Translations under genes and position numbers: made by a program | From: Firmicutes bacterium CAG:884 | Lineage (GTDB): Bacteria > Bacillota_I > Bacilli_A > RF39 > UBA660 | Assembly: GCA_000433875.1 (NCBI GenBank) | Contig: HF993331.1 | Span: 1,868 to 65,867, forward strand | Reading direction: 5' to 3' | DNA: 64,000 nt | In this document: positions 2,993-36,948 of the stretch, piece by piece | Numbering within the stretch: position 1 is the first letter of the stretch | Layout: each line of letters starts with the position of its first letter | Notes under the pieces: generated by a model | The model's input: only the letters and a program-made list of their open reading frames with translations | The model's database searches: none | Told to the model about the DNA's origin: nothing

Positions 2993-3196
2993 ATGAAAAG
3001 TATTCTGACTAAACGTGAACGCGAAGTTTTTAAATTATTAGTTGAAAATAAAACAACATCTGATATAGCTGAAATATTAGAAATCAGCGAAAAAACAGTA
3101 CGAAATCATATATCAAATGTAATGCAAAAACTTGGCGTGAAAGGTCGAGCAGGAGCGGTAGTTGAACTTTTAAAACTTGGAGAAATTACTCTGTAA
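2993..3196 (+). CDS. LuxR/GerE-family HTH transcriptional regulator (small)
   Basis: REREVFKLLVENKTTSDIAEILEISEKTVRNHISNVMQKLGV is a typical LuxR-type HTH. ATG at 2993 follows the RBS agagggaaagg. Confidence 0.7.
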   Translation: MKSILTKREREVFKLLVENKTTSDIAEILEISEKTVRNHISNVMQKLGVKGRAGAVVELLKLGEITL

Positions 3197-3223
3197 AGCA
3201 CATAAAAATGTGCTTTTTTCATA
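3197..3223 (+). terminator. Intrinsic terminator hairpin aaagcacat/atgtgcttt plus T-run
   Basis: Perfect inverted repeat followed by tttttt immediately after the luxR-like stop. Confidence 0.5.
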
Positions 3224-3242
3224 TATTGAAATAGGTGATAAA

Positions 3243-5686: not shown

Positions 5687-7156
5687 ATGGATAAATTAGA
5701 AATAATAAAAAGTATCACTGAAAGAACGAACGGTGATATATATTTTGGGGTAGTAGGAGCAGTAAGAACAGGAAAATCAACATTTATAAAGAAGGTTATT
5801 GAAACACTAGTCGTACCAAATATTGAAGATGAATATGAAAAGAAAAGATGTTTAGATGAGATTCCACAATCAGCTCAAGGAAAAACAATAATGACAACAG
5901 AACCAAAGTTCGTGCCATCAAATGCAGCAAATATCAAAATTGATAACTTTGAAGCAAGTGTTCGACTAGTTGATTGCGTAGGTTACGTAATAAAAGGTGC
6001 CAAAGGATATGAAGATGAAAATGGACCAAGAATGGTTCATACACCATGGTATGATGAAGCATTACCATTTGTAGAAGCAGCCGAAATAGGAACAGAAAAA
6101 GTTATTAAAGACCATTCAACAATTGGAATAGTTGTAACAACTGATGGATCAATAGGGGAGTTTGAAAGAGAAGAATATGTAGAATGTGAAAAAAGAGTTG
6201 TAACCGAATTAAAAGAAATCGGTAAACCATTCATCGTATTATTAAACTCAACACACCCAATGCTACCAGAAACAGAAAAATTATCAGAAAAATTAAGAGA
6301 AGAATACAATGTACCAACCTTACCAATAAATATTGAAAATATGAACGAAAAAGATATTTATGGAATCCTAAGAGAAGCACTATATGAATTCCCGGTATTA
6401 GAAGTTAAAGTAAATATGCCAGAATGGATAGCTTGTTTAGATGCAAATAATTGGCTAAAGAAAATATACATTGAAAAAATAAGAGAAAGCGTTGTTGAAG
6501 TCGATAAATTAAGAGATATTGAAACAATCAATAAACACTTTACAGACTGTGAATATATTGAAAAATCTTACATTTCAGAAGTAGACACCGGATCTGGAAT
6601 AGTAACTATATCATTAAAAGCACCAAAAGAATTATATAATACTGTTCTAAATGAAATAATTGGCGTAGAAATAAGAAATAAAACAGACCTTTTAAAACTA
6701 ATGCAAGAATACAATGAAGCAAAAGTAGAATATGACCAAGTAAAAACAGCTCTAAAAATGGTAAAAGCAACCGGGTATGGAATCGCAACCCCATCTCTAA
6801 AAGATATGAAACTAGATACACCAGAGGTAATTAAACAAGGAAGTAGATACGGAATTAGACTAAAAGCAGTCGCACCATCAATACATATGATAAGAGTTGA
6901 TGTTGACTCAACATTTGAACCAATTATCGGAACAGAAGTACAATCTAAAGAACTAATCGACCATCTAGTTAAAGATACTGATTCAAACAACGTATGGAAA
7001 TCAGAAATATTCGGAAGATCACTTGATGTAATCGTTCAAGAAGGAATTCAAACAAAACTTTCTATAATGCCAGAGACAATAAGATATAAATTACAACAAA
7101 CACTAACAAAAGTAGTAAACAAAGGTTCTTCAACAATGATAACCATAGTATTATAA
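5687..7156 (+). CDS. spoIVA: Stage IV sporulation protein A (spore coat morphogenetic ATPase)
   Basis: DIYFGVVGAVRTGKSTFIKK Walker A. Long collinear similarity to SpoIVA (IPQSAQGKTIMTTEPKFVP, RLVDCVGYVIKGAKGYEDENGPRMVHTPWY). RBS gtaggtaaat. Confidence 0.9.
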   Translation: MDKLEIIKSITERTNGDIYFGVVGAVRTGKSTFIKKVIETLVVPNIEDEYEKKRCLDEIPQSAQGKTIMTTEPKFVPSNAANIKIDNFEASVRLVDCVGYVIKGAKGYEDENGPRMVHTPWYDEALPFVEAAEIGTEKVIKDHSTIGIVVTTDGSIGEFEREEYVECEKRVVTELKEIGKPFIVLLNSTHPMLPETEKLSEKLREEYNVPTLPINIENMNEKDIYGILREALYEFPVLEVKVNMPEWIACLDANNWLKKIYIEKIRESVVEVDKLRDIETINKHFTDCEYIEKSYISEVDTGSGIVTISLKAPKELYNTVLNEIIGVEIRNKTDLLKLMQEYNEAKVEYDQVKTALKMVKATGYGIATPSLKDMKLDTPEVIKQGSRYGIRLKAVAPSIHMIRVDVDSTFEPIIGTEVQSKELIDHLVKDTDSNNVWKSEIFGRSLDVIVQEGIQTKLSIMPETIRYKLQQTLTKVVNKGSSTMITIVL

Positions 7157-10433: not shown

Positions 10434-11060
10434 ATGAAAAAAAGAATAAGACTAAAAAAGAAAAAAAATATAAAATGGACACTTATTATATTAGTACTAT
10501 TAATAACATTCATTATTTCCTTAGCATCCAAACAAATAAGAAAAAGTGCGCAAATCTATATAGAAGCAAAAACAAAAGAAATAGTATCAAAAGAAATAAC
10601 GTTAACAATAAAAGATTATTTGCCCAAAGAAAATATCTTTAAAATCGAAAAAGATGGAAATGAAATAATCGGTGCCAGTTTAGATAATGAAATAATGAAT
10701 CAAAAACTAGTATTAATAAATGAAAAAATAGAACAAAAACTAGATAGTATGAATAATACTATCATTTTTAAAATGCCATTACTTGCTTCAACGAACAATA
10801 TTTTTTTTGCAAATAAAGGACCAAAAATACCAATAAAATATATGTCAAACGGAAATATAATAAACAATATAAGAACCGAAGTAAAGAATTACGGATTGAA
10901 TAATGCACTCATAACAGCATATCTAGATTTAAACATTGAATGCAGTATTATCTTACCAATAACAATTAAAAAGGTTGAAGTAAATCAAACAATTGTATTA
11001 GGAACAAGAATAATTCAAGGGAAAATACCAAATTATTATGTCAGTAATAATACAATTTAG
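10434..11060 (+). CDS. YunB-like sporulation protein (N-terminal TM)
   Basis: Single TM. C-terminal pattern GPKIPIKYMSNG..ITAYLDLNIECSIILPITIKKVEVNQTIVLGTRIIQGKIPNYY resembles the YunB family. Confidence 0.45.
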   Translation: MKKRIRLKKKKNIKWTLIILVLLITFIISLASKQIRKSAQIYIEAKTKEIVSKEITLTIKDYLPKENIFKIEKDGNEIIGASLDNEIMNQKLVLINEKIEQKLDSMNNTIIFKMPLLASTNNIFFANKGPKIPIKYMSNGNIINNIRTEVKNYGLNNALITAYLDLNIECSIILPITIKKVEVNQTIVLGTRIIQGKIPNYYVSNNTI

Positions 11061-19772: not shown

Positions 19773-19870
19773 TAAAATAATGAAAGTTTTATATAATATA
19801 AAACTTTTTCTTTATAAAAAAGTAGAAAAAATAAAAAAAATAAGTTATAATTATATTAGAGGTGTTAAAA

Positions 19871-20845
19871 ATGGGAATATTCGACAAGTTTAAAAACATA
19901 TTTACAAAGAAAGATATAAACGAGTATGACAAAGCATTAGAAAAAACAAGAAATAGCTTTACATCAAAATTAGGTAACCTATCAAAAAAATATAAAGAAT
20001 TAACAAATGAATATTTTGAAGAATTAGAAGAAATTCTTATAATGGCTGATATTGGCGTAGATACAGTAGTAAAACTAGTAGACCGCTTAAAAAGAAGAGT
20101 AAAAGAAGAAAAAATAACAAGTCCAGAAGAATTGAAAGAAATAATTGTTGACGAAATGTTTATTATATATGTTGATGGTGATATCTTAACAAATAAAATA
20201 AACACAAACAAAGAAGGACCAACAGTATTATTATTTGTGGGTGTAAATGGTGTAGGAAAAACAACAACAATTGGTAAAATCGCATATCAATTAACAAGTA
20301 AAGGCAAAAAAGTCTTATTAATAGCCGGCGATACATTTAGAGCAGGCGCTGTTGAACAAATTCAAGAATGGGGAAGAAAATCGGGAGCAGACGTTTATTA
20401 TAAAGAAAAAGCTGACCCTGCAAGCGTTGTATATGATGGCTTAAAAAAAGGCTTGGATTATGATGTAATACTAATTGATACAGCAGGAAGACTTCAAAAC
20501 AAAGTAAACCTAATGAATGAACTAGCAAAAATAAATAAAGTAATAAAACAAATAATACCATCCGCTCCTCACGAAACATTACTTGTAATAGATGCAACAA
20601 CAGGTCAAAACGGAATATCACAAGCTAAAAATTTTAAAGAAATAACAGACATAACAGGAATTGTTTTAACAAAACTAGATGGAAGCGCTAAAGGCGGAAT
20701 TGTTCTTGCAATTAAAGATGAAGTTAAAATACCAGTAAAATACATTGGTTTAGGTGAAGGATATAATGATTTAAAATCATTTGATATTGAAGCATATATA
20801 TATGGCTTATTTAAGGATCTAGGTGATAAATATGATGAAAAGTAG
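19871..20845 (+). CDS. ftsY: Signal recognition particle receptor FtsY
   Basis: NG domain. GVNGVGKTTTIGKIA and DTAGR motifs. RBS agaggtg. Confidence 0.9.
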   Translation: MGIFDKFKNIFTKKDINEYDKALEKTRNSFTSKLGNLSKKYKELTNEYFEELEEILIMADIGVDTVVKLVDRLKRRVKEEKITSPEELKEIIVDEMFIIYVDGDILTNKINTNKEGPTVLLFVGVNGVGKTTTIGKIAYQLTSKGKKVLLIAGDTFRAGAVEQIQEWGRKSGADVYYKEKADPASVVYDGLKKGLDYDVILIDTAGRLQNKVNLMNELAKINKVIKQIIPSAPHETLLVIDATTGQNGISQAKNFKEITDITGIVLTKLDGSAKGGIVLAIKDEVKIPVKYIGLGEGYNDLKSFDIEAYIYGLFKDLGDKYDEK

Positions 20846-21131
20846 TACTGATAGTGCGAAAGTAACTAAAAAAATAAAAGATTATAAAATGAAAGATTGG
20901 TTATTTTTCACGCAAATTTTACTAGTAATAATTACAATTGGAACATTTATTTATACATATTTAGTTGAGCGTAACTATAAATATTTAACTGATTTTATGG
21001 TAAGTTTATTACTATTTAATCTTGCCCTTAACAATAAAAAAATATATAAAAGGAAAAACTTTACAACAATATATATAATTTTTGGTATATTCTTTGTTCT
21101 ATCAGGAATATGGGGAATCTTCAATGGATAA
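20832..21131 (+). CDS. Small hypothetical membrane protein
   Basis: Two hydrophobic helices. Overlaps the ftsY end in another frame, so the call is weak. Confidence 0.3.
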   Translation: MMKSSTDSAKVTKKIKDYKMKDWLFFTQILLVIITIGTFIYTYLVERNYKYLTDFMVSLLLFNLALNNKKIYKRKNFTTIYIIFGIFFVLSGIWGIFNG

Positions 21132-21414
21132 TGTATTAAAATATACTGAATTATTTGATTACTATGGAAACTTATTAACTGAAAAAGAAAAAATATATTT
21201 TAAAGACTATTATTTTGAAAATTTTTCATTAAGTGAAATTGCTGAAAATAATGGAATAAGTAGAAATGCAATCCATAAACAAATAAAATCAGCAGAACAA
21301 AAATTAGAAGAATATGAAGAAAAACTAAATATGATAAAAAGAGATCAAAAAATAAAAAAAATATTAAATGAAATAAAAGATGAAAGGGTTTCTAAAATAT
21401 TAGAAATAATGTGA
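21124..21414 (+). CDS. ylxM: YlxM/UPF0122 putative DNA-binding protein of the SRP operon
   Basis: ELFDYYGNLLTEKEKIYFKDYYFENFSLSEIAENNGISRNAIHKQIKSAEQKLEEYEEKL collinear with B. subtilis YlxM. Confidence 0.7.
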   Translation: MDNVLKYTELFDYYGNLLTEKEKIYFKDYYFENFSLSEIAENNGISRNAIHKQIKSAEQKLEEYEEKLNMIKRDQKIKKILNEIKDERVSKILEIM

Positions 21415-21418
21415 TAAT

Positions 21419-23176
21419 ATGTTTGGAAAAATACTATATATAGGAGATAATATAGCACGTGTCGCTTTAATAGAAGGTGCAGTTGTAAGTGATATAATGA
21501 ACTTACACGTAATATTTGAAGATGAAAAAAAACAAATATTAGGCGAAGTAGATGATATAAGTGAAAAAGAAATTAAAATATCTTTCCTAGGAGAAATTGT
21601 AAACGGAATTTTTATTGGTGGTGTAATAAGAAAACCAAGCCTAACAAGTAAAATAAGACCAATTAAACCAGAAGAAATGAAACTTATAATAGGTGATGAA
21701 GGAAATGATACAATGTTACTAGGATATTCACCATTATATGATGCCTGTCCAATTAGAGTAAAATATAATGATTTATTCAGTAATCATATGGCTATATTTG
21801 GTAATACCGGTTCCGGTAAATCTTGTGGTGTAGCCCGCTTACTTCAAAATGTGTTTAATAATAAAACATATTTACCATTTAGATCAAATATATTTTTGTT
21901 TGATGCTTATGGAGAATATCATAATGCATTTAGAGATTTAAACAAATATAATATAAATTTAAACTTTAAATACTATACAACTAATTTGCACGATTCAGAA
22001 GGTGAAATATTAAGAATACCATTATGGTTATTAGATGTTGATGACCTAGCTATTTTACTAGGTGCAACAAACCACGGCCAAATAACTATTCTTGAAAGAG
22101 CACTTAAATTAGTTGAAATATTTGCTGAAAATGATGAAGGTGCAAGAAAATACAAAAATCATTTAATAGCAAAAGCAATAATGACAATACTATATACAAA
22201 TCAAACATCAGCATCTAAAAGAAATGATATATTTAGTATAATTCAAACTTGTTCAACACCAGAATTTAATTTGGAAACAATTATACAAGGAATAGGTTAT
22301 CAAAGAAGATTTAGAGAATGTTTTATAATTGACACTGCCGGAAACTTCTGTGAAAGCGTTTTGATTACTCAATATATTCAAGGATTTATTAATGATGAAC
22401 TTGAAAAATATGAAGCAAAAAGTGAAAATTATTATACATTAGATGATTTTGAACAAGCTCTATCATTTACATTAATAAGTGAAGGATTTTTAAGAAATGA
22501 ACAAACATATGGTGATGCAGTAACATTAAAAGTAAAATTACACGCTTTAGTAATAGGTGAAAATAAAGAATACTTTAATTTACCATCTTATATAACAAGA
22601 GAAAAATATATTGCATCATTAATATCATCAGGAAATAAAAAAGTTCAAATAATTAACTTTAACCTAGAAGAAGTAGATGACCATTTTGCAAAAGCAGTAA
22701 CAAAAATATTTACAAAAATGCTATTTAATTTTGCAAAATCACTAAAAACAAGAGCATCAATACCATTCCATATATTCTTAGAAGAAGCTCATAGATATGT
22801 TAAAAATGATGAAGATACATATTTAATAGGTTATAATATTTTTGAAAGAGTTGCAAAAGAAGGAAGAAAATACGGAGTATTATTGAATCTAATATCTCAA
22901 AGACCAGTTGAACTTTCAGAAACAGTAATATCACAATGTTCTAACTTTATGATATTTAAAATGAATCACCCAAGAGATTTAGAATACATTAAAATGATGC
23001 TACCAAATATTAATAATGAAATAGTTGAAAAACAAAAATCATTACAACCAGGAACATGTGTAGCATTCGGTAAAGCATTTAAAATACCAATGATAGTTAA
23101 AATGCAAATGCCAGATCCGGCACCATATAGTTCTAGCTGTAATGTTTATGAAACTTGGAAAGCAAATAGAGAATAA
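21419..23176 (+). CDS. HerA/DUF87-like P-loop ATPase
   Basis: N-terminal HAS-barrel-like segment. Walker A FGNTGSGKS. Walker B/DEAH-like HIFLEEAHRY. Arginine-finger region GVLLNLISQRP. Confidence 0.6.
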   Translation: MFGKILYIGDNIARVALIEGAVVSDIMNLHVIFEDEKKQILGEVDDISEKEIKISFLGEIVNGIFIGGVIRKPSLTSKIRPIKPEEMKLIIGDEGNDTMLLGYSPLYDACPIRVKYNDLFSNHMAIFGNTGSGKSCGVARLLQNVFNNKTYLPFRSNIFLFDAYGEYHNAFRDLNKYNINLNFKYYTTNLHDSEGEILRIPLWLLDVDDLAILLGATNHGQITILERALKLVEIFAENDEGARKYKNHLIAKAIMTILYTNQTSASKRNDIFSIIQTCSTPEFNLETIIQGIGYQRRFRECFIIDTAGNFCESVLITQYIQGFINDELEKYEAKSENYYTLDDFEQALSFTLISEGFLRNEQTYGDAVTLKVKLHALVIGENKEYFNLPSYITREKYIASLISSGNKKVQIINFNLEEVDDHFAKAVTKIFTKMLFNFAKSLKTRASIPFHIFLEEAHRYVKNDEDTYLIGYNIFERVAKEGRKYGVLLNLISQRPVELSETVISQCSNFMIFKMNHPRDLEYIKMMLPNINNEIVEKQKSLQPGTCVAFGKAFKIPMIVKMQMPDPAPYSSSCNVYETWKANRE

Positions 23177-23196
23177 TATTGTTATTCTCTTTTTAA
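23168..23196 (+). terminator. Terminator agagaataa-tattg-ttattctct plus T-run
   Basis: Perfect 9-bp stem that includes the stop codon of the ATPase gene. Confidence 0.6.
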
Positions 23197-23245
23197 TTTG
23201 AATATTTAATATTGTGTGATATAATTATGATGTAGGGGGATATCT

Positions 23246-24190
23246 ATGGAAGAATTTAATAAACTAAACATACTACAAAAAAGAAAGATGGCTATTGAAG
23301 ATCTTGTTAAATATTATGCTGATTATAGAATATATTGCTATAACAATAATGAGAAATTAAAAGGAATAGAACTAAGAAAAAAAATACATTTTCTTATTGA
23401 TTTAATTTTACAAATTGACAAATTAGTATCTAAAGAAAATAACATTATAATAGGAAATGAAAATAAAGCAATAAAAGATGAACCAAAAATATTTGCGTGT
23501 ACACATATTGGTGGAAATGATATTCAAAGAACTTTACAAATAATTAAAGAACCAGCATATTTAATGCTAGGTGATCCAGGTATTTTATATAGAAAACTAA
23601 TATATCAAGGATTGAAATTAAACGGAGTTATTCCATTAGAAACAAAAAACAAAGTTGATAGAAAAGTAGCATATAATAGATCAATAGAACTTTTAAATAA
23701 TGGTGGTAATTTATTGATATATCCAGAAGGTGCTTGGAATGTTTCACCTAATGAATTAGTTATGAAAACCTTTGTCGGAACAGTTAGAATGGCTAGAGAA
23801 ACAGGAGTACAAATAGTACCAATAGCAGTTGAACAATATGGTAAAAATTTTTATTTTAATATCGGTAAAAATTATGGCATTGCAAAAAATTCGAACAAAA
23901 CTGAAAAAGAATTAAATAATGAATTAAGAGATAAACTTGTAACACTTAAATGGCATATTCTTGAAACACAGAAAACACTAAAAAGAAAAGATTTGCCAAG
24001 CGACTATATTCATAAGTTTCAATCCGAGATAGTAGATAAATGTAACTATGGATATGGTTTTTCTTTAGAGGATGCCTTAAGTGAAAGATTTCACGATAAG
24101 AGTATAATATCAGAAGCGGAAGTATTTAGTTTTCTAGATAATTTAAAAATTAATAAAAATAATGCATTTTTGTTAAGATACAAAAGATAA
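23246..24190 (+). CDS. LPLAT-family acyltransferase (PlsC-like)
   Basis: H(X)4D motif in FACTHIGGNDI. PEG motif in LLIYPEGAWN. Own extended -10 TGTGATATAAT at 23215-23225. Confidence 0.6.
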   Translation: MEEFNKLNILQKRKMAIEDLVKYYADYRIYCYNNNEKLKGIELRKKIHFLIDLILQIDKLVSKENNIIIGNENKAIKDEPKIFACTHIGGNDIQRTLQIIKEPAYLMLGDPGILYRKLIYQGLKLNGVIPLETKNKVDRKVAYNRSIELLNNGGNLLIYPEGAWNVSPNELVMKTFVGTVRMARETGVQIVPIAVEQYGKNFYFNIGKNYGIAKNSNKTEKELNNELRDKLVTLKWHILETQKTLKRKDLPSDYIHKFQSEIVDKCNYGYGFSLEDALSERFHDKSIISEAEVFSFLDNLKINKNNAFLLRYKR

Positions 24191-24199
24191 AAGAGAGGG

Positions 24200-26035
24200 T
24201 TGATTATTGTGCAAGCAATTGTTTTACAAATTGTTGGACTATTAATAGTCACAACATTATTAATTATGTTTTTTACTAAACCTAATGTAGAAAATAAAGA
24301 AACAAAAACGTATTCAAAGTTGCTAATTTTAAACTTAATATTTATACTTGTTGGTATAGCAACATATTTTGTTGCTCATTTAACTAAAAAATACACATAT
24401 ATAATGATGCTTCAAAAAATATATATGAGTGTTTTGGCATTACTTAATATGTACTCAATGTTTTACTGTATTTCTATATATGATAAAGACAATAAGTATC
24501 AAAAAATTAAAACTATGCTACTTGTAATTACCTTAATATCAATATTATTAATTATAGTATTACCACTAAATGTAATTTTTGAAGGTAATTTACTTGATGG
24601 TGATGGTCCTTCATATGATGTTGCAATTGGTCACACAATTTTAAGCTTTAGTTTTTTCATAATTGTAACCATATATTTTTTAATAAAGAAATATTCAATA
24701 AAAAAAATCTTGCCTTACATTATTCTAATAACATTATATTTGTTAGGATTTCTTATTAGAACATTTTATAAGGAACTAATATTTGAAGGCTTCTTTTATT
24801 CATATATCTTACTTATTATGTTTAACACAATAGAAAATCCCGATGTAAAAATGGCTAAAGAATTAGCATTTCAAAAGGAATTAGCATTGGATTCATCAAA
24901 AAAAACAATGGAATTACTTGAAGAAATGGCTAATGAACTAAAATCGACAATTAAAGAATTAGTTTTAATTGAAAATGTCAAAATAGATGAGAATAATATA
25001 AATGATGTGAATAATACATTATCAAAATTTCAAAATAGGGCAATTATATTAAGGGATAAGATTACAAGTATTTTAGATCTTGCAATGGTGAAAAGTGACA
25101 CAAAAGTTGTTACATACAAATATGAAACATATGATATGATTGATAGATTAAAACAATTATTGTCAAATGAAGAAAGTATGCACTCTACAAAAATGAATGT
25201 TGACGTAGAAAAAAACATGCCACAAGTACTTTATGGTGATGAAAATAATGTTTTAAAAGTTACGATAGCTTTCTTCAACTTTCTATCATCGATAATTGAA
25301 AATAAAAAAATAGAACTAAAAATTAATAGTATTAAAGTTGGAAATTTTGCAAAAATAAGATTTAATTTTATAACAGATGATAAATTAGTTGAGGATTATA
25401 TTGTAGAGAATAAGCATACAAAAAAACTAAGAATCGAAAAAGACAATGATATGAACTATGAAATGATAAAATATTTATTAGCAAAATTAGATGGCACAAT
25501 CACTATTAATAAAAGTGAAAATATAATAACTATTTCCTTAAATATAAATCAAAGATTAGTAAGTGAATATGATGTTATAAGTAATAAAAAAGAAAATCAG
25601 AATATTAAAATTAAATATCATAATTATAGTGATAAGAGAATATTAATTGTAGATAATAATAATCTAAAAATTAAAGAACTTAAAATATTATTAAGTCCAT
25701 ATAATGTTCAAACCATATCTACAAACAACTTATCAGAAATGTGTGATGCTATAAATGATAATGAAACTTTTGATTTGGTTTTTATTGATGATATAATACC
25801 AGGAGATAGTATTAATGAGTTTTCAAAAATGCTTATTAAGGATAATGGTGTTTTAAACTACATTAGAAGAGAAACAAAATATCCAATCACTACTATTGTA
25901 ATGATTACGCCGAATATTAATAACAATGAAAAAGAGTATTTAAAACTAGGATTTAGTGATTACATTATAAAACCAATTAACAAGAAAAACTTAGATGATA
26001 TTCTAAATAAATATTTTCAAAAAAATAATGATTGA
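24200..26035 (+). CDS. Polytopic membrane protein with degenerate histidine-kinase-like core and C-terminal receiver domain
   Basis: About 7 TM helices. Helical region lacks the phospho-His. C-terminal REC-like region (RILIVDNNN...FDLVFIDDIIPG...IIKPI). Probable GTG start at 24209. Confidence 0.5.
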   Translation: MIIVQAIVLQIVGLLIVTTLLIMFFTKPNVENKETKTYSKLLILNLIFILVGIATYFVAHLTKKYTYIMMLQKIYMSVLALLNMYSMFYCISIYDKDNKYQKIKTMLLVITLISILLIIVLPLNVIFEGNLLDGDGPSYDVAIGHTILSFSFFIIVTIYFLIKKYSIKKILPYIILITLYLLGFLIRTFYKELIFEGFFYSYILLIMFNTIENPDVKMAKELAFQKELALDSSKKTMELLEEMANELKSTIKELVLIENVKIDENNINDVNNTLSKFQNRAIILRDKITSILDLAMVKSDTKVVTYKYETYDMIDRLKQLLSNEESMHSTKMNVDVEKNMPQVLYGDENNVLKVTIAFFNFLSSIIENKKIELKINSIKVGNFAKIRFNFITDDKLVEDYIVENKHTKKLRIEKDNDMNYEMIKYLLAKLDGTITINKSENIITISLNINQRLVSEYDVISNKKENQNIKIKYHNYSDKRILIVDNNNLKIKELKILLSPYNVQTISTNNLSEMCDAINDNETFDLVFIDDIIPGDSINEFSKMLIKDNGVLNYIRRETKYPITTIVMITPNINNNEKEYLKLGFSDYIIKPINKKNLDDILNKYFQKNND

Positions 26036-26103: not shown

Positions 26104-26161
26104 CATAAAAACCTTTATTTTTTAATAATTATTTGTTAAAATTAGAAAGAGGGTGATTAAA

Positions 26162-27469
26162 ATGTTTGAATCATTAGGAGAAAGATTACAAAACGCAATA
26201 AAGAAAATAAAAGGGTATGGAAAAATAACCGAAGAAAATATAAGTGATGTAACAAGAGAAATTAGACTCGCACTTCTAGAAGCTGATGTAAACTATAAAG
26301 TTGTAAAAGAGTTTATTGATAATGTTAAAACAAAAGCTTTAGGTGAAGAAGTTGCAAAAGCTCTAAATCCAGGCGAAGTATTTGTAAAAATATTAAAAGA
26401 TGAATTAGTTGACTTACTAGGCGGAAATAAAGAAGATTTAAAAATAGATGGAAATCCAACAGTACTAATGTTAGTTGGTTTACAAGGATCTGGTAAAACA
26501 ACAACAATTGGTAAACTAGCTAATTTATTAAGAAAAAAATATAAGAAAAAGCCACTTTTAGTAGCATGTGATATTTATAGACCAGCAGCAATTGATCAAT
26601 TAAAACAACTAGGAAAAGAACTAAACATCGAAGTATATGAAGAAGGAAAAAATAATCCTGTAGAAACAAGTAAAAATGCTGTTGAATATGCCAAAAATAA
26701 TAATTATGATTATGTATTAATTGATACAGCCGGACGCTTACACATAGATGAACAATTGATGGATGAATTAAAAAATATCGAAGAAACAGTTAAACCTGAT
26801 GAAGTCCTATTAGTACTAGATAGTATGATTGGACAAGATGCAATTAATGTTATCAATGGTTTTAACGAAAAATTAAAACTAACTGGGGCAATACTAACTA
26901 AACTAGATGGAAGTGCTAAGGGTGGTGTCGCACTATCAGTAAGACACTTAACAAATATTCCAATCAAATTTATAGGAACAAGTGAACGCTTAGATGGCTT
27001 AGAAGAATTCTACCCAGAAAGAATGGCAAGCCGTATTCTTGATATGGGTGATCTAATGTCAATGGTTGAAAAAGCTGAATCAGTAATTGATGAAAAAGAA
27101 GCCGAAGACCTAGCAAAGAAAATGCAAAAAGGAAAATTTGATTTAGAAGATTTCTTAAAACAAATGAACCAAATAAAGAAACTAGGACCACTAGAAAATC
27201 TAATTAAACTATTACCAGGCGCAAATAAAATGGGATTAAATAATATTCAAGTAAATCCTAAAGATATGGCTCATATAGAAGCAATTATTCTATCAATGAC
27301 ACCATATGAAAGAAAACATCCCGAAGTATTAAAAGCAAGCCGTAAAATGAGAATTGCAAAAGGTTCAGGAAGAAGTGTTGAAGAAGTAAATAGACTTTTA
27401 AAACAATTTGAGCAAATGAAAGAAATGATGAAAAGACTTCAAAACGGGAGTATGAAATTACCATTTTAA
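26162..27469 (+). CDS. ffh: Signal recognition particle protein Ffh
   Basis: GLQGSGKTTTIGKLA and DTAGRLHID motifs. M domain with a Met-rich C-terminus. ATG at 26162 after RBS aagagggtg. Confidence 0.9.
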   Translation: MFESLGERLQNAIKKIKGYGKITEENISDVTREIRLALLEADVNYKVVKEFIDNVKTKALGEEVAKALNPGEVFVKILKDELVDLLGGNKEDLKIDGNPTVLMLVGLQGSGKTTTIGKLANLLRKKYKKKPLLVACDIYRPAAIDQLKQLGKELNIEVYEEGKNNPVETSKNAVEYAKNNNYDYVLIDTAGRLHIDEQLMDELKNIEETVKPDEVLLVLDSMIGQDAINVINGFNEKLKLTGAILTKLDGSAKGGVALSVRHLTNIPIKFIGTSERLDGLEEFYPERMASRILDMGDLMSMVEKAESVIDEKEAEDLAKKMQKGKFDLEDFLKQMNQIKKLGPLENLIKLLPGANKMGLNNIQVNPKDMAHIEAIILSMTPYERKHPEVLKASRKMRIAKGSGRSVEEVNRLLKQFEQMKEMMKRLQNGSMKLPF

Positions 27470-27470
27470 T

Positions 27471-27815
27471 ATGAATGAAATATTATATAAATTATCTAAA
27501 TCAAAATTTAGAAGTAGTTTTAAATTAAAAGAAAAAGATAAAAAATATATTGAAGAAAAAACACTATCAAAAATAAGAGAACATGCGTATGATTTCATTA
27601 ATAAAAGGCTAAAAGATGTCTCAAATATAAATGATGGCAAACAAACACCAATGAAAGGCCATCCAGTCTTTGTAGCCCAGCACGCAACAGCAACATGTTG
27701 TAGATCTTGTTTGGAAAAATGGCACCATATAAGTAAAAATAAAGTACTTTCAAATGAAGAAGTAGATTATATTGTAAATATAATAATGAAATGGATTGAA
27801 AATCAAATATCATAA
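27471..27815 (+). CDS. DUF4186-family protein
   Basis: GHPVFVAQHATATCCRSCLEKWH signature. Starts 2 nt after the ffh stop. Confidence 0.5.
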   Translation: MNEILYKLSKSKFRSSFKLKEKDKKYIEEKTLSKIREHAYDFINKRLKDVSNINDGKQTPMKGHPVFVAQHATATCCRSCLEKWHHISKNKVLSNEEVDYIVNIIMKWIENQIS

Positions 27816-27849
27816 AATAATCAATTTGAAAAGTGAAACGAATAAAAAT

Positions 27850-28104
27850 ATGATTATAGAAATGAATAAAATTTTAAAAAGAAACACAAGTGGTGAAGAA
27901 GATCCAAGGTATAATGTTGGAGGCTTTAAAATTGTTCCCAATATGATAGGCGTAGTCAACATAATAGAAACAACAAAACCAGAAAATGCTTTAAAAGAAA
28001 TAACGGAATTACTGAAAGAATATAATTCCAAAAAAACAATAAAAATAGAAGATATAATTGATTTTCACTTTAGATTTGAAAGAATACATCCATTTGGTGA
28101 TTAG
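27850..28104 (+). pseudogene. Fic-family gene, N-terminal fragment ending inside the Fic motif (…IHPFGD*)
   Basis: ORF ends FHFRFERIHPFGD then TAG. The rest of the HPFxDGNGR motif is 1.15 kb downstream. Confidence 0.45.
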
Positions 28105-28214
28105 GATGAACACTTAAGACAGAAAATGGCATACTTTCAAAATTCACATATAAGTAGTGGAATGTTCTGATATAATATGTTTATTAATGTAATTAAATCA
28201 GGAGGTAAAGAATT

Positions 28215-29232
28215 ATGCAAACATTACAAATAAGAAATTCAACAGCAGAATTTTTGATATTTACAAAACAAAATAAAGAAAAGACAATAGAAGTGATTGT
28301 TGATGAAGAATCAGTATAGCTTAGTCAAAAATTGATGGCCGAGCTTTTCGGAACAACGAGAAATAATATAACAATGCATCTTTCTAATATTTTTGAAAAA
28401 GAATTAAGTGAGGATTCAGTATGTAAGGAATTCTTACATACTGCTAGAGATGAAAAAAATTATAAAACAAAATATTATAATTTAGATGCTATTATTGCTG
28501 TTGGATTTAAAGTTAATAGCAAAAGAGCAATTGATTTTAGATTGTGGGCAATCAATATTTTAAAACAATATTCTGTAAAAGGATATGTATTAGATAAAGA
28601 AAGACTTAAAAATGGAACATTTTTAAATGAAAATTATTTTGATGAATTATTACAAGAAATAAGAGAAATAAGAATTAGTGAAAGGAATTTTTATCAAAAG
28701 ATTACCGATATATACACAACAAGTTTAGATTATAATGTATCTTCACCAATAACAAAAGATTTTTTTTAAAACAGTTCAAAATAAAATGCATTATGCTGTT
28801 CATGGAAATACGACTGCAGAAGTTATAGTGAACCGTGCTAATCATAAAAAGGCGCATATGGGATTAACAAATTGGAAAAATTCACCTAATGGCAAAATAA
28901 TTGCATCTGATGTTATAGTTGCTAAAAATTATCTAACTAAAGAAGAATTAAAATCTTTAGAAAGAATTGTTACAATGTATTTAGATTACGCAGAGGATCA
29001 AGCTGAAAGACATATTCCTATGACAATGGAAGACTGGAAAGGTAAGCTAGATGTATTTTTACAATTTAATGAAAGAGATGTACTTGATAATCCTGGTAAA
29101 GTATCTCATAAGGTAGCAGAAAGTTTTGCACTTTCTGAATTTGAAAAGTATAGAATTACTCAAGATAAATTATTTGAATCTGACTTTGATAAATTTATGA
29201 TTGAAATGGAAAATGAGGATATCAGTTGTTAA
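28215..29232 (+). pseudogene. rhuM: RhuM-family gene with an in-frame amber codon and a +1 frameshift
   Basis: Collinear RhuM similarity across three frames. TAG at 28317-28319 falls where the RhuM alignment has Trp (ESV*LSQKLMAELF). Frame change in the T8 run at 28760-28767 (…TKDFF / KTVQNKMHYAVHG…). Confidence 0.65.
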
Positions 29233-29507
29233 AAAAAATTTGTTCTTAAATATCATCCTCAGACGGAAATGGTCGTGTTGGAAGAATTATTATGTTTAAA
29301 GAATGCTTAAAAAATAATATTATGTCATTTATTATATTAGATGAAGATAAATCGTATTATTTAAGAGGATTAAAAGAATATGAAAATGACAAAATGTTTT
29401 TAATTGACACTATAAAAAACGAACAAGATTTGTATGAAAAAATATGTGAAGAATTATTAAATTTTGAAATAAAAGAAACAAATGACCCATTAACCAATGA
29501 CAAATAA
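29233..29507 (+). pseudogene. Fic-family gene, C-terminal fragment (…KYHPQ/DGNGRVGRIIMFKE…)
   Basis: DGNGRVGR completes the Fic motif but needs a -1 shift after HPQ. Annotated ORF 29292-29507 continues this frame. Confidence 0.45.
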
Positions 29508-29558
29508 CTTATACAAAAAAATAAAAACCTCATATTATAAAGTAGTTAGGAGGTTTTT

Positions 29559-29825
29559 ATGCTATTTGGATTTGGAAGAAGGAACAACGGATGTGGATGC
29601 GGATGCAATCAAAATATGGATCCATGCCGTCAAAATGAAGTAATTGAACCAACAATTACAAAATGTGTAGAAAAAGAATTCTATCACGAAGTACCACACA
29701 TATGCCCAATACATACACATGTTGTAAATAAACATATTTATAATCATACATATAGACCAGAGTATACTTGCTCAGAAGAAAACGTTGTCGTTAATAATGA
29801 TTGCAACAAATGTAGTGGATTTTAA
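29559..29825 (+). CDS. Small Cys/His-rich protein, possibly CotD-family spore coat protein
   Basis: Strong RBS agttaggaggtttttATG. His/Cys-rich repeats (PHICPIHTHVVNKHIYNHTYRPEY). Followed by a terminator. Confidence 0.35.
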   Translation: MLFGFGRRNNGCGCGCNQNMDPCRQNEVIEPTITKCVEKEFYHEVPHICPIHTHVVNKHIYNHTYRPEYTCSEENVVVNNDCNKCSGF

Positions 29826-29828
29826 AAT

Positions 29829-29848
29829 AAGGCCTAAAAGGCCTTTTA
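29829..29848 (+). terminator. Terminator aaggcc-taaaa-ggcctt plus T-run
   Basis: Seen directly in the sequence. Confidence 0.6.
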
Positions 29849-29892
29849 AATTTGTTCAAATAATGATATAATCAAAAACAGGAGTGATAAAA

Positions 29893-30741
29893 ATGTTTAA
29901 AGGAAAACCATTCGTAAAATGGGCCGGAGGAAAAAGACAAATTATAGATAAATTAAAAGAGTATGTACCAGATGAATATGATACTTACTATGAACCATTT
30001 GTAGGCGGAGGCGCATTACTTTTTGAACTAGCACCTAAAAAAGCTGTTATAAATGACCTAAATGAAGAATTAATGAATGTATATAATTGTTTATGTAATG
30101 AAGAAAAGTTCAAAAAAATGTGTAACTTATTAAATCATTATGAAGCTGAACATTCAGAAGAGTTTTATTACGAAATAAGAAATAAAGACAAAAATAAAAA
30201 TGCATATAATCGTTTATCTGACTATACTAAGGCAGCCCGTACAATATATTTGAATAAAGCTTGTTTTAACGGATTATATCGCGTCAATAGCAAGAATGAA
30301 TTCAATGTACCATTCGGTAAAAAAACAAAAATTAATACTTATGAAGGAAGTAATCTAATAACAGTAAGCAATTATTTAACAATGAACGATATAAAAATAC
30401 AAAGTGTAGATTTTGAAGAATCTTTAAAAACAGCTAAAAAAGGTGATTTTGTTTATATAGATCCACCATATGACTCAGACACATCAACATTCAATAACTA
30501 TACAGAAGATGGCTTTGGAAAAGAAGAACAAAGAAGACTAGCCAAAGTATATAAAGATTTAGACAAAAGAGGAGTATATGTTATGCTTTCAAACCATAAT
30601 ACAAACCTAATAAATGAACTTTACAAAGACTATCATATTCATATAATAGAAGCAAAAAGAAATATAAACGCAAATGGAAAAAAAAGAGGTAAAGTAGAAG
30701 AAGTAATTATAACAAATTACGAAAATAAAAGAGATTTTTAA
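29893..30741 (+). CDS. dam: Dam-family (DpnM/M.MboI-like) N6-adenine DNA methyltransferase, probably GATC-specific
   Basis: KWAGGKRQ, EPFVGGGA (motif I), YIDPPY (motif IV). C-terminus YVMLSNHNTNLINELYKDYHIHIIEAKRNINANGKKRGKVEEVIITNYE recalled as DpnM-like. Confidence 0.85.
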   Translation: MFKGKPFVKWAGGKRQIIDKLKEYVPDEYDTYYEPFVGGGALLFELAPKKAVINDLNEELMNVYNCLCNEEKFKKMCNLLNHYEAEHSEEFYYEIRNKDKNKNAYNRLSDYTKAARTIYLNKACFNGLYRVNSKNEFNVPFGKKTKINTYEGSNLITVSNYLTMNDIKIQSVDFEESLKTAKKGDFVYIDPPYDSDTSTFNNYTEDGFGKEEQRRLAKVYKDLDKRGVYVMLSNHNTNLINELYKDYHIHIIEAKRNINANGKKRGKVEEVIITNYENKRDF

Positions 30742-30760
30742 AATCAAACGAGGTGGAAAT

Positions 30761-31675
30761 ATGAATGATGAATTTCATAATCTAATAAAAGAAATATGTG
30801 AAAAACATAATATAAAATATAATCTTATTTCAAATGGTTGGGTAATGGTTCTTGAAAAAAACAATATAAAAGAAATAATAGTAGGCTATAAGTTTGAAAA
30901 TAATAATCATGCAATCGGTAAAATATTTGATGACAAATATGCAACATATGAATTACTTAATCTATATAATATCCCAGTAGTAGAGCATAGTATTGTTTAT
31001 AGCTTATCAAACAAAAATGAATATGCTAAAAAATATAATAGTGCAAAATACATTGAAAAATTATTCAATAAATATAATAAAGATATCGTTATAAAAGAAA
31101 ATACTGGATCAGGCGGAAAACAAGTTAAAAGATTTAATGATTTGAATGAATTAACAAAATACCATATAAAGATCGAGGATAATAACTCATATAGTATTAC
31201 ACCATTTTATAATATTGAAAATGAATATAGAACAATCATTTTAAATAATCAAATAAAATTAATGTATAAAAAAGAATTACCAGTAGTATATGGTGATGGT
31301 AGAACTAAAATAGAAGATTTATTAAAAAAATTTAATTATGAATACTTTAAAAATATAAAAGATGAAAGAATCTTAAAAAAGGGTGAAAAATATGCATACG
31401 ACTGGAAGTTTAATCTAGCCCGCGGATCAAGAGCAAACTTTGAAATAGAAGAAAATGATAAAAAACAAATATTAGACATAATAAATAAAATACTAAATAA
31501 TTTCAAAATAGGATTTTGTAGCATTGATATAATTAAAACAGAAAGTAAGTTTATGGTTCTTGAAATCAATAGTGGGGTTATGATGACAAACCTAATAAAA
31601 GAAAATATAGATGGTAAAAATATAGCATTTAAAATATATGAAGAAGAAATACTAAATATCTTTGGAGAAAAATAA
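30761..31675 (+). CDS. ATP-grasp-like protein (an unrecognised type II restriction endonuclease is the alternative)
   Basis: IVIKENTGSGGKQVKRF, EYRTIILNNQI and SKFMVLEINSGVMM match the ATP-grasp K-loop, central and Mg-binding patterns. RBS gaggtgg. Positioned like an R gene after the Dam methyltransferase. Confidence 0.45.
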   Translation: MNDEFHNLIKEICEKHNIKYNLISNGWVMVLEKNNIKEIIVGYKFENNNHAIGKIFDDKYATYELLNLYNIPVVEHSIVYSLSNKNEYAKKYNSAKYIEKLFNKYNKDIVIKENTGSGGKQVKRFNDLNELTKYHIKIEDNNSYSITPFYNIENEYRTIILNNQIKLMYKKELPVVYGDGRTKIEDLLKKFNYEYFKNIKDERILKKGEKYAYDWKFNLARGSRANFEIEENDKKQILDIINKILNNFKIGFCSIDIIKTESKFMVLEINSGVMMTNLIKENIDGKNIAFKIYEEEILNIFGEK

Positions 31676-31676
31676 T

Positions 31677-32465
31677 ATGGAATTTATAAAAACACTAATT
31701 GAAAGTATAAAAAGTAATTATGTAACATATCTTTTTTACTCTTGGTTCTTTTGTTTTCTTATGTATGCCCTATATAAAATAACAAGTCATTATTATCCCC
31801 AACTAAGAGGCTTTTGGGGTGAAAGATGGGTTAAAGACGAATTAAATAAACTACCCAAAACAAATTACAAAATATTAAACAACATAACAATATCTGATGA
31901 AAAAGGAATTCATCAAATTGACCATATCGTAGTTTCAAAATATGGAATATTTGTTATTGAAATGAAAAATTACTACGGATTAATAAGAGGAAATGAATAC
32001 TGGGATTATTGGATGCAATATGTAGGTAAAAATAAAAGAACATTTAAAAATCCCATTTATCAAAATTATGGCCACATAAAAGCCCTAGCAAATCTATTAG
32101 ATATAGATGAAAATAAATTCTTTTCAATAATCTGTTTTTCAAATCAAGCCAAATTAAAAGTTATATGTAAAACACCAATTGTACAAACATATGAAATCGC
32201 GCTTACAATAGGAAAATATCAAGAAGAAATACTAGATAATATAGAGCAAATAAGCGAAACAATAATAAAGAATAATATTAAAGATAAAAAAGTAAAAAAA
32301 GAACATACTAGTAAAATACAAAACCAAATAAGACTAACAGAAGAAAAAATAAGCAAAAACATATGTCCAAAATGTGGAAGTAAATTAGTTGAACGAAAAA
32401 GCAAATATGGATCATTCCTTGGCTGTTCTTCATATCCGAAATGTAAATTTACTAAACAATTATGA
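31677..32465 (+). CDS. NERD-domain nuclease-like protein with C-terminal topoisomerase-type C4 zinc ribbon
   Basis: NERD pattern (GERWVKDEL...IHQIDHIVVSKYGIFVIEMKNYYG...NPIYQNYGH). CPKCGSKLVERKSKYGSFLGCSSYPKC. Confidence 0.7.
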   Translation: MEFIKTLIESIKSNYVTYLFYSWFFCFLMYALYKITSHYYPQLRGFWGERWVKDELNKLPKTNYKILNNITISDEKGIHQIDHIVVSKYGIFVIEMKNYYGLIRGNEYWDYWMQYVGKNKRTFKNPIYQNYGHIKALANLLDIDENKFFSIICFSNQAKLKVICKTPIVQTYEIALTIGKYQEEILDNIEQISETIIKNNIKDKKVKKEHTSKIQNQIRLTEEKISKNICPKCGSKLVERKSKYGSFLGCSSYPKCKFTKQL

Positions 32466-34509: not shown

Positions 34510-34677
34510 AAAAATAATAAAAGGTATAATATTATACCTTGACTATTCAAACTAAAGGTATGAAAAATACCTTTTTTTGATGAATATAAATAAAACTTTC
34601 AAAAAAAATAAAAAAATTTGAAAAATAAAAAGTTTTAAGACTATTTACCTCGTATAGTATATTTGAGGAGGAAAAAT

Positions 34678-36948
34678 ATGTTAAAAACAATAATAATAAT
34701 TTTAAGTACTTTATTATGTATAACAAATACAAATGCCAGTGCGAAAATAGAAAAACAAAACATTTACTATGCAAGATATGGAGGAGGTAAACCATATTTA
34801 TCAGATAAAGTTGAATACTTTGAAATAGACGGCAACACGGCTTACTGTATTGAACCAGGAATGCCAATATCAACAACTGACTATATAGAAATGAATGAAT
34901 TACCATATTCAAATGACATAATTGAAAAAATAAAACTAATAGGCTATTATGGCTATAATTATGAAAACCATAAAACAAATAACTATCGCCTAGCAACCCA
35001 AGCACTTATATGGAATCTAATAGGTGGACAAAAAGTTGACTTTTATACTAAACAATATGGTTATGGTGATTATATTGATATATCCAAAGAAAAAGAAGAA
35101 ATCCAAAATCTAATAAATAAACACTACCTAAAACCAACTATAAATGATATAGAAGAATTTTATAATAATGAAATCATAATAAAAGATGCAAATGAAGTAT
35201 TAGATAACTATGAAATTGAATATCAAGGAAAAAATAATGTTCAAATTAAAAATAATACCCTAATAATCAAAATACTAAAACAAGATAAATTAATCCTTAA
35301 AAGAAAAAAATATGATAATAAAACGTCTGTATTTTATGAAGGAAACAATATAAAATCGCAAATGATAGCAGTTTTAACATTAGATGAAATAGATAAAATA
35401 GAAATAAACCTATCTCCAATATTTGGTGAATTAAAAATAAATAAAAAAAGTAATAAAGAAAGTATTTATACTTTAAAAGATGCCATTTATGGAATATATG
35501 ATCTAGAAAATAATTTAATAAAAGAAATTAAAACAGATGAGAAAGGAAACGCTCAAGCAAAATTAACCAAAGGAAAATATTATTTAAAAGAAATAAAAGC
35601 ACCATTAGGTTATCATTTAGACGAAACTAAACATTACTTTGAAATAGATAAAGAAAATCTAATAAAAGAACTTATTCTTGAAGAAGAAGTAATTGAAAGT
35701 AAAATAAAACTTAAAAAAAGGTATGGTAATTCAAGTAAAGAATTATATGATGAACCAAACATAACATTTTTAGTATATAAAAACAATGAATTAATAAATA
35801 AAATAACAACAAATGAAATAGGGGAAGCAACAATTATCTTACCATATGGAAAATATACTATAAAACAAGAAAATACCAAAGAAGGATATTTAAAAGTAAA
35901 TGATTTTGAAATTACTGTAGATGGAAAAAATAAAGAATTAAAATATGAATTAGTAGATGAAGAAATAAATGCTTTTGTCAAAATTATAAAAAAAGATTAT
36001 GAAACAAATGAAACAATAAAACAAAAAGGAATAAAATTTAAAATCAAAAATTTAGATAAAAATGAATATATATGTGAAAATAAAGAATGTACATATGAAA
36101 CAAACGAAGAAGGCTATATAATAACATCTGAGCGTTTAAAAGGTAATCTTTTAATTGAAGAATGTAAACAATACTTGAATGGTTATATATGGAACAAAGA
36201 AAAAATTAAAATATTTATAGGTGATAAAATAATAGATACATATACTATTGAATTCAAAAATAAAAGAGTAAAAGGTCAAATAAAAATCCTAAAACAAGGT
36301 GAAAATGAATTATTAGAAAATGTTAAATTTAATTTATATGCTAAAGATAATATTATCATCAATAATAAAATAATATATAAAAAAAATGAATTAATTTTAA
36401 CAAAAACAACAAACAAAGAAGGAATAATTATATTTGATAATTTAGAATTAGGAAACTATTATATAAAAGAAATAGAAACAAATAATAACTATATACTAGA
36501 TGATAAAGAATATGAAATATCATTAAAATACAAAGACGAAGAAACAAGTATTATTAAAGAATATATAGAAATTAAAAATTATCTAAAAAGAGGGAAATTA
36601 GTATTTTATAAAATAGATTCCTTAACAAAAGAAAAACTAGAAAATGCTGTTATTCAAATATATAAAGATAATGAATTAATAAAAGAAGAAGTAACAAATA
36701 TAGATGGATTAATAGAACTAAGTAATCTTTTAATAGGTAATTACTATATTATTGAAAAAGAAGCCCCCAAAGGGTATATAAAATCTGAAAATATAATAGA
36801 GTTTGAAATAAAGTATAACGAAGTAACGGAAATAACTATGGAAAATGATCCTATAATAGAAGTACCAAATACAATAAAAAACTCCAATTATAAAATAATA
36901 ACTTTACTCATAATAGGACTATTAAAAAAATATGAAGAAACTAATTAG
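34678..36948 (+). CDS. Cell-surface adhesin: signal peptide, thioester-like domain, Cna-B/SpaA-type repeats, atypical sorting signal
   Basis: RBS gaggagg. YCIEPG and TQALIW in the first 120 aa. Repeats carry G(K/N)YY(L/I)KE(I/T)(K/E)AP-GY. C-terminus EVPNTIKNSNYKIITLLIIGLLKKYEETN. Confidence 0.6.
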   Translation: MLKTIIIILSTLLCITNTNASAKIEKQNIYYARYGGGKPYLSDKVEYFEIDGNTAYCIEPGMPISTTDYIEMNELPYSNDIIEKIKLIGYYGYNYENHKTNNYRLATQALIWNLIGGQKVDFYTKQYGYGDYIDISKEKEEIQNLINKHYLKPTINDIEEFYNNEIIIKDANEVLDNYEIEYQGKNNVQIKNNTLIIKILKQDKLILKRKKYDNKTSVFYEGNNIKSQMIAVLTLDEIDKIEINLSPIFGELKINKKSNKESIYTLKDAIYGIYDLENNLIKEIKTDEKGNAQAKLTKGKYYLKEIKAPLGYHLDETKHYFEIDKENLIKELILEEEVIESKIKLKKRYGNSSKELYDEPNITFLVYKNNELINKITTNEIGEATIILPYGKYTIKQENTKEGYLKVNDFEITVDGKNKELKYELVDEEINAFVKIIKKDYETNETIKQKGIKFKIKNLDKNEYICENKECTYETNEEGYIITSERLKGNLLIEECKQYLNGYIWNKEKIKIFIGDKIIDTYTIEFKNKRVKGQIKILKQGENELLENVKFNLYAKDNIIINNKIIYKKNELILTKTTNKEGIIIFDNLELGNYYIKEIETNNNYILDDKEYEISLKYKDEETSIIKEYIEIKNYLKRGKLVFYKIDSLTKEKLENAVIQIYKDNELIKEEVTNIDGLIELSNLLIGNYYIIEKEAPKGYIKSENIIEFEIKYNEVTEITMENDPIIEVPNTIKNSNYKIITLLIIGLLKKYEETN

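Follow-up and report, generated by a model that had tools for sequence, protein, structure and literature searches.

The locus

The signal recognition particle (SRP) genes of Firmicutes are canonically clustered in the order ftsY–ylxM–ffh. Firmicutes bacterium CAG:884 keeps this order and strand in a 64,000-nucleotide (nt) stretch of contig HF993331.1 (positions 1,868 to 65,867; the whole of this stretch is called the window here), with a gene for a stand-alone HerA-family ATPase of 585 amino acids (aa), herA, intercalated between ylxM and ffh (Table 1). The window further departs from the canonical cluster by a small predicted membrane protein gene after ftsY and by two genes between herA and ffh. 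The genes for FtsY, the small membrane protein, YlxM and HerA follow one another head to tail on the forward strand, and 4 nt separate the TGA of ylxM from the ATG of herA, exactly as the initial annotation of this DNA had described. That annotation also stated that ffh is not the gene next to ylxM, and indeed ffh begins 2977 nt downstream of herA.

The identity of YlxM is genuine, as its product scores 89.9 bits against PF04297 (cutoff 22.7) and 93 bits against the YlxM equivalog NF045758 (cutoff 80); it is of ordinary length for a UPF0122 protein, and its gene is positioned after ftsY. On reading the sequence, the small open reading frame (ORF) between the two overlaps the end of ftsY, and its own stop codon overlaps the ATG of ylxM. 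An ORF of 76–145 aa occupies the same slot in relatives throughout the lineage (e.g. L001, L002, L144 and L183), weakly conserved at 28–76% identity where similarity is detectable.

The ATPase gene was proposed to end in its own terminator, and a hairpin of this kind does overlap its stop codon: an AU-rich stem of 10 bp (23168–23177 paired with 23181–23190) closes a 3-nt loop and is followed by UUUUU. It folds at −10 kcal/mol (z = −3.7), and 0 of 200 shuffled sequences were as stable. A consensus terminator scan missed this hairpin because the stem holds two G–C pairs and the scan demands at least three. The promoter-like site just upstream of ftsY is weak evidence for an operon promoter, such sites being no more numerous than expected from shuffled sequence. 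The best reading of these signals is that herA is the predicted last gene of an ftsY–small membrane ORF–ylxM–herA transcription unit that ends at the hairpin, and that it is probably translationally coupled with ftsY–ylxM.

The ATPase is a HerA of a distinct subfamily

The 585-aa protein matches the HerA central domain PF01935 at 75.7 bits (cutoff 23.2) and, over its full length, the PADLOC HerA model PDLC04102 (E = 4.5e-109). A profile of 45 orthologues searched against the sequences of the PDB retrieved HerA-type chains alone (9c1m at E = 2e-56, 8xau, 8ziq, 8wiv, 4d2i and 8j4u). In an AlphaFold 2 (AF2) monomer model (predicted local distance difference test score 81; predicted template modelling score 0.81), the N-terminal barrel is succeeded by a RecA-like alpha/beta core with a helical insert at approximately residues 207–401. 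The top 50 Foldseek matches of this model in the PDB were all HerA structures, with template modelling (TM) scores of 0.55–0.75 and alignments of 595–661 columns that span the full length; the top matches came from SIR2–HerA and DUF4297–HerA systems and from Sulfolobus HerA.

The motifs quoted in the initial annotation are all in place, FGNTGSGKS at residues 127–135, HIFLEEAHRY at 451–460 and LISQRP at 491–496, and the HAS-barrel-like N-terminus that it had read from the sequence is a barrel in the AF2 model. Among the 45 orthologues, Walker A residues G128, N129, G131, S132, G133 and K134 and Walker B residues E455, E456 and H458 are invariant; in the SQRP motif P496 never varies and at least 90% of sequences keep Q494 and R495, and several further arginines and lysines are likewise invariant or conserved at that level. 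Because the Walker A, Walker B and SQRP motifs are conserved and the PDB and fold matches are to HerA, the protein is apparently a bona fide, active member of the HerA family. Its possible nature as an FtsK fragment, raised as an alternative at the outset, was not borne out: Pfam FtsK_SpoIIIE (PF01580) stays below its cutoff of 24 bits, at 16.6, and covers the P-loop alone, no gamma domain was detected with Pfam, and the best fold matches are all to HerA. By eye, and without a formal membrane-anchor test, no obvious hydrophobic segment was seen.

Scores fall far below every curated NCBIfam HerA equivalog cutoff, namely 162 and 177 bits for the anti-phage equivalogs NF042943 and NF042944 (cutoffs 800 and 850), and 90 and 116 bits for the double-strand break repair equivalogs NF040819 and NF040937 (cutoffs 970 and 800); the ATPase therefore belongs to a distinct subfamily. 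HerAs of the SIR2–HerA (Nezha-type) and DUF4297–HerA systems (8yhx, 8wld, 8j4u, 8sub, 9c1m, 8xau and 8ziq) resemble it most, with the same architecture and length, the best fold matches (TM 0.6–0.75), and Walker A, Walker B, SQRP and a C-terminal P-x-P-x-P…W tail in common; of these structures, 8yhx stems from a study of Sir2–HerA (PMC11514289). Plasmids of Enterococcus and Listeria carry HerAs of about 31% identity, in each case with a SIR2 gene that lies upstream of the herA and overlaps it, and such a SIR2-linked plasmid HerA is collinear with residues 52–580 of the window protein, the first ~50 residues being unaligned. Unlike these systems, the herA of the window is chromosomal and vertically inherited (see below), and none of the contexts seen shows an effector gene beside it. 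Sulfolobus HerA (4d2i) has the same succession of HAS barrel, RecA-like core and helical domain (Foldseek E = 2e-24, TM 0.55 by query and 0.68–0.70 by target; profile match E = 1.9e-37). Compared with HerA of the HerA–NurA systems, the window protein is longer (585 versus 500 aa), and no NurA, Mre11 or Rad50 is encoded nearby.

Conservation across the lineage

A scan of GTDB representatives found a relative in at least 233 species-level genomes, and synteny was read in the best 80, which are 63–93% identical to the window HerA and are all gut or rumen metagenome-assembled genomes (MAGs) labelled Bacilli, Tenericutes, Mollicutes or Candidatus Fimihabitans. In 68 of the 80, ylxM lies directly upstream of herA and is itself preceded by ftsY. 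The downstream junction is looser, with ffh within 5.1 kb of herA in 38 of the 80 and within 200 nt in nine of those 38. A metagenome scan anchored on FtsY, and hence unbiased with respect to HerA, yielded 65 loci that extended far enough downstream: the gene after ylxM was herA in 35 of them, ffh (the canonical order) in three and another gene in 27, these last mostly from one population. The canonical ftsY–ylxM–ffh order without herA occurs in the related genomes L129, L139 and L179. At 100 of 104 distinct loci, no more than 30 nt lie between the stop of ylxM and the start of herA (median 13 nt), and a Shine–Dalgarno sequence usually precedes herA; in the clade of the window the gap is 3–4 nt and none is visible.

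Mean pairwise p-distances, computed over 64 loci, are 0.30 (HerA), 0.26 (FtsY), 0.24 (RNase J) and 0.43 (YlxM), and distances correlate with r = 0.60 for HerA–FtsY, 0.74 for HerA–RNase J, 0.82 for FtsY–RNase J and 0.60 for YlxM–HerA. HerA thus diverges at about the slow pace of FtsY and RNase J, in step with both, which fits a vertically inherited gene under strong constraint. No close relative was found in 50,697 phage records, and plasmid relatives reach at most 31% identity. A recent insertion or island is ruled out by the lineage-wide synteny, by this co-divergence and by a GC content without anomaly.

The initial annotation had viewed the ATPase as an insertion at the place where ffh is expected. 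That view is largely refuted, since homologues across the lineage routinely follow ylxM and precede ffh and evolve like core genes. What has been inserted in the window are the two genes between herA and ffh, for an acyltransferase and for a membrane protein of 611 aa that makes multiple passes and carries a receiver domain at its C terminus; no recognisable kinase domain was detected in this pair. Both occur in the closest relatives L005, L007, L008 and L010 only. In L009, whose HerA is 92% identical and which lacks both, ffh begins 61 nt past herA, and it is on this ground that the acyltransferase and receiver genes, not herA, are taken to be the clade-specific insertion. From these comparisons we infer ftsY–ylxM–herA–ffh as the ancestral order in this low-GC, spore-forming, uncultured lineage of gut Bacilli. 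Literature searches, one of them in full text, returned no description of HerA with ylxM or in an SRP operon, nor of this HerA clade, in line with the earlier remark that the arrangement is undescribed.

Orthologues in other genomic contexts

When homologues were clustered at 50%, about a dozen full-length clusters shared at least 39% identity with the window HerA; below that level lie generic HerAs of 600–700 aa. The SRP context extends down to 57% identity, where cluster P0122 has RNase J followed by ftsY–134-aa ORF–ylxM–herA. Elsewhere the neighbourhood changes. Nine GTDB species (L063…L082; 63–64%) carry herA between rny and recA, and L051 and L055 (65–66%) have herA–ffh without ylxM. In P0127 (42%), P0378 and P0281, herA stands between rpmH-rnpA-yidC-jag and, after ~450 bp, dnaA-dnaN-recF-gyrB. 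It follows rmuC in P0125 (45%) and a parA/minD-like gene, with CotE nearby, in P0132 (39%); it lies within PP2C–herA–sepF–divIVA–ileS in P0126 (44%) and is solitary in P0128 (41%).

A comparison of operon partners over six further neighbourhood types found no neighbour common to them, so that the search for recurrent partners suggested in the initial annotation brought none to light. SIR2, DUF4297, NurA, Mre11 and Rad50 were not among the herA neighbours at any locus examined, a statement that covers adjacent genes only. Sister-clade orthologues at recA, dnaA, sepF-divIVA, rmuC and parA-like loci have no ylxM beside them, so that HerA and YlxM are not obligate partners.

Some members of the wider group have peculiarities of their own. 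In the clade L096–L102, where herA is inserted between rpmH and dnaA, ~420–540 bp separate it from dnaA, and dnaN and recF flank a ComK-like gene; the DnaA-box region has perhaps been reorganised there. Clusters P0121, P0122, P0124 and P0126 bear S/N/T/P/Q-rich low-complexity extensions of 80–360 aa, C-terminal except in P0124, where they are N-terminal; the window protein has none. The divergent P0129 cluster (943 aa) has a degenerate Walker B (HLLIDNAH), no SQRP motif and a 360-aa acidic, Ser-rich tail, and may be a pseudo-ATPase. The C-terminal ATPase segment is shared by the NCBIfam model 'ser_rich_anae_1'.

Other features of the window

The 3′ part of a genuine FtsK/SpoIIIE gene is cut by the edge of the window, outside the SRP operon; its product is 50% identical to the E. 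coli FtsK motor (tblastn, E = 4e-102) and scores 201.6 bits for Pfam FtsK_SpoIIIE and 98.5 bits for FtsK_gamma. The HerA differs from this FtsK fragment in its HAS barrel and in the lack of a detected gamma domain. The idea, prompted by the dnaA, sepF-divIVA and parA-like contexts, that HerA replaces a missing FtsK/SpoIIIE is thereby ruled out.

Sporulation genes lie at 3177–4187, 5687–7156, 10434–11060 and 29559–29825 (GerM-like (Germane), SpoIVA, YunB and a small Cys/His-rich CotD-like protein), and CotD-like ORFs come after ffh in L051, L055 and L083. The window also encodes cell-wall functions, namely a sortase, a SpaA-type pilin (34663–36948), VanY and PBP5. With this gene content the host resembles an endospore former that has a cell wall, yet close relatives appear in public records under the titles Tenericutes, Mollicutes or Mycoplasmatota. 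Downstream of ffh–DUF4186, a patch at 27796–32465 on the forward strand looks defence-related or mobile (Fic to NERD in Table 1). An 812-aa ORF at 40371–42809 (forward strand) has no Pfam match at E 0.01 or better.

Table 1. Features of the SRP–HerA locus and of other parts of the window (positions are those of the window).
Feature	Position	Strand	Evidence
FtsK/SpoIIIE, 3′ part (motor and gamma), cut by window edge, outside the operon	2–1024	+	tblastn, Pfam
Promoter-like site TAGAAA-17-TATAAT, candidate operon promoter just upstream of ftsY	19823–19851	+	Consensus scan, 10/12 matches
ftsY (SRP receptor), first gene of the predicted transcription unit	19862–20845	+	Pfam SRP54 246.8 bits, SRP54_N 62.8 bits
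Small predicted membrane protein ORF, start uncertain	20823–21131	+	ORF list and sequence
ylxM (UPF0122, sigma-70 region-4-like helix-turn-helix (HTH) protein of the SRP operon)	21124–21414	+	Pfam PF04297, NCBIfam NF045758
herA, stand-alone HerA-family ATPase, 585 aa	21419–23176	+	PF01935, PADLOC HerA, PDB profile matches, AF2 and Foldseek
N-terminal beta-barrel (HAS-barrel-like), residues 1–82	21419–21664	+	AF2: seven strands between residues 2 and 81
Walker A GNTGSGKS, residues 128–135	21800–21823	+	Sequence reading
Walker B HIFLEEAH, residues 451–458	22769–22792	+	Sequence reading
SQRP sensor motif, residues 493–496	22895–22906	+	Sequence reading
Intrinsic-terminator-like hairpin and T-tract, overlapping herA stop codon	23168–23199	+	RNA folding, inverted repeat
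Extended −10 promoter-like site TTGAAT-16-TG-TATAAT, ahead of acyltransferase gene	23198–23225	+	Consensus scan, 10/12 matches with TG
Acyltransferase gene	23246–24190	+	Pfam Acyltransferase
Membrane protein with receiver domain	24200–26035	+	Pfam Response_reg
ffh (SRP54), displaced last SRP gene	26153–27469	+	Pfam SRP54 265.5, SRP_SPB 120.3, SRP54_N 83.8 bits
Truncated Fic fragment	27796–28104	+	
RhuM gene split in two	28332–28769 and 28786–29232	+	
D12-class Dam methyltransferase	29884–30741	+	
ATP-grasp protein	30761–31675	+	
NERD nuclease with Top1 zinc ribbon	31662–32465	+	

Discussion

To our knowledge, bacterial HerA ATPases have so far been understood as partners of an adjacent enzyme, either NurA in end resection or SIR2/DUF4297 in phage defence. 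The HerA family itself is known; what is new is that one of its members stands alone, is inherited vertically and forms part of a core operon. With somewhat better than even confidence, we propose that the window protein is a housekeeping HerA-type nucleic-acid motor that is co-transcribed with ftsY–ylxM, and not an inserted defence gene. In this reading its gene has been handed down vertically, held by purifying selection of the same strength as acts on FtsY and RNase J. By analogy with its family, the protein would most likely assemble into a hexameric ring and use ATP to move along or unwind nucleic acid, double-stranded DNA being the most probable substrate. A likely setting would be housekeeping maintenance of the chromosome, for example repair, recombination or segregation, without a dedicated adjacent effector. 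The sister-clade contexts that relate to DNA (recA, dnaA, rmuC, parA-like and sepF-divIVA) are suggestive of such a role, and housekeeping DNA maintenance is also the province of HerA–NurA end resection (Deinococcus NurA-HerA; PMC9960219). The link between ylxM and herA would then be best explained by shared transcription and translation in a growth-linked operon rather than by a two-protein machine.

Several observations weigh against this proposal. All relatives derive from metagenomes or MAGs, and the closest characterised ones are anti-phage HerAs. Housekeeping neighbours count for little, because genomes of ~1.2–1.5 Mb consist mostly of housekeeping genes. Conservation and the absence of a partner were read from the loci compared and from adjacent genes; an unlinked nuclease or SIR2, or a herA missing from some genomes of the lineage, may be compatible with the data. 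Lastly, adjacency of ylxM and herA is kept far more often than that of herA and ffh, and this unequal retention could reflect a functional tie.

Such a tie might take the form of a dedicated two-component module, in which the HTH protein YlxM recruits or regulates the ring ATPase, thereby linking this motor with the SRP pathway or with a target that is DNA or RNA. The short ylxM–herA gap at nearly all loci, without a visible Shine–Dalgarno sequence in the window clade, speaks for it, as do the persistence of the adjacency down to P0122 while the herA–ffh junction is repeatedly broken, and the same upstream, overlapping position of the partner in SIR2–HerA systems. We nevertheless regard the module as unlikely, given that orthologues occur in at least six other contexts without ylxM, that herA–ffh is retained without ylxM in L051 and L055, and that related genomes have ylxM followed by ffh or other genes and no herA. 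YlxM is moreover an ordinary-length UPF0122 protein that passes its equivalog cutoff, and its distances correlate with those of HerA no more highly than those of FtsY do. The unusual HTH–HerA pair of defence or DNA processing suggested in the initial annotation thus survives as a tight coupling to ylxM, but not as an obligate pairing or as a unit with an adjacent nuclease or NADase effector. A more specific version, in which the HerA ring was recruited as an accessory of the YlxM/SRP operon, e.g. to connect co-translational membrane targeting or transertion with the handling of chromosome or RNA, appears very unlikely to us; likelier than this is a first housekeeping, effector-less bacterial HerA that shares its ancestry with SIR2–HerA defence. 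Least probable of all, and indeed hard to credit, is a role in the biogenesis of membrane proteins, with protein or RNA as the substrate of the motor. It would explain why herA resides within ftsY–ylxM–ffh in most species and why, in another clade, it is divergently adjacent to rpmH-rnpA-yidC-jag; however, the space between rpmH and dnaA is canonically the origin region, so that the proximity to YidC is incidental. In addition, recA, rmuC and sepF are the neighbours in other clades, and the solved HerA-type relatives that were retrieved all belong to DNA-end-processing or anti-phage complexes, several with bound DNA.

There are two further alternatives. The protein might be a cell-cycle DNA pump that works like, or beside, FtsK/SpoIIIE in segregation at division or sporulation. 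FtsK and SpoIIIE are ring-shaped P-loop pumps of the same FtsK–HerA superfamily, the host is a spore former (SpoIVA, GerM, YunB), and orthologues in sister clades immediately precede sepF-divIVA, stand at the origin with rpmH and dnaA on either side, or follow a ParA/MinD-like gene; several members also bear long low-complexity tails, which we take to resemble FtsK linkers. Set against this, a genuine FtsK/SpoIIIE with a gamma domain is encoded in the same window, HerA has no Pfam-detectable gamma domain and, by eye, no obvious hydrophobic segment, and the contexts vary by clade and may be due to chance in small genomes, so that we think a pump of this kind rather improbable. The other possibility, slightly more doubtful still, is an orphan anti-phage HerA that has lost its SIR2 or DUF4297 effector, or is unlinked from it, yet remains in immunity and has become fixed in the lineage. 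Here the best PADLOC, PDB-sequence and fold matches, all to defence HerAs, the collinearity with the SIR2-linked plasmid HerA of Enterococcus and Listeria, and the split RhuM, Dam methylase and NERD genes 5–9 kb downstream in the window argue in favour. They are countered by the lack of an adjacent effector in the window or in ~180 related loci, by anti-phage equivalog scores far under their cutoffs, by a position fixed in a core operon across many species, by a rate of divergence like that of FtsY and RNase J with distances that track theirs, and by the failure to find close homologues on phages or plasmids.

With the angle of a defence-like insertion removed, the remaining lead is a large, core-like HerA clade in an uncultured gut lineage. 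This clade, tightly conserved and without a partner gene beside it, counts thousands of metagenomic sequences, and at least 233 species-level genomes carry a relative. It also provides a clean system in which to study the action of a lone HerA ring. It also calls for caution in genome annotation, as a PADLOC-positive HerA is not automatically a defence gene, and it demonstrates that the make-up of the ftsY–ylxM–ffh cluster varies among Firmicutes. If functional coupling between the two proteins were true, it would provide a new joint role for YlxM, itself poorly understood, and for a bacterial HerA that stands alone. If the protein is truly housekeeping, a HerA scaffold of the defence type would also be used, or would have been domesticated, for a basic cellular task in a major group of uncultured, spore-forming gut Bacilli.

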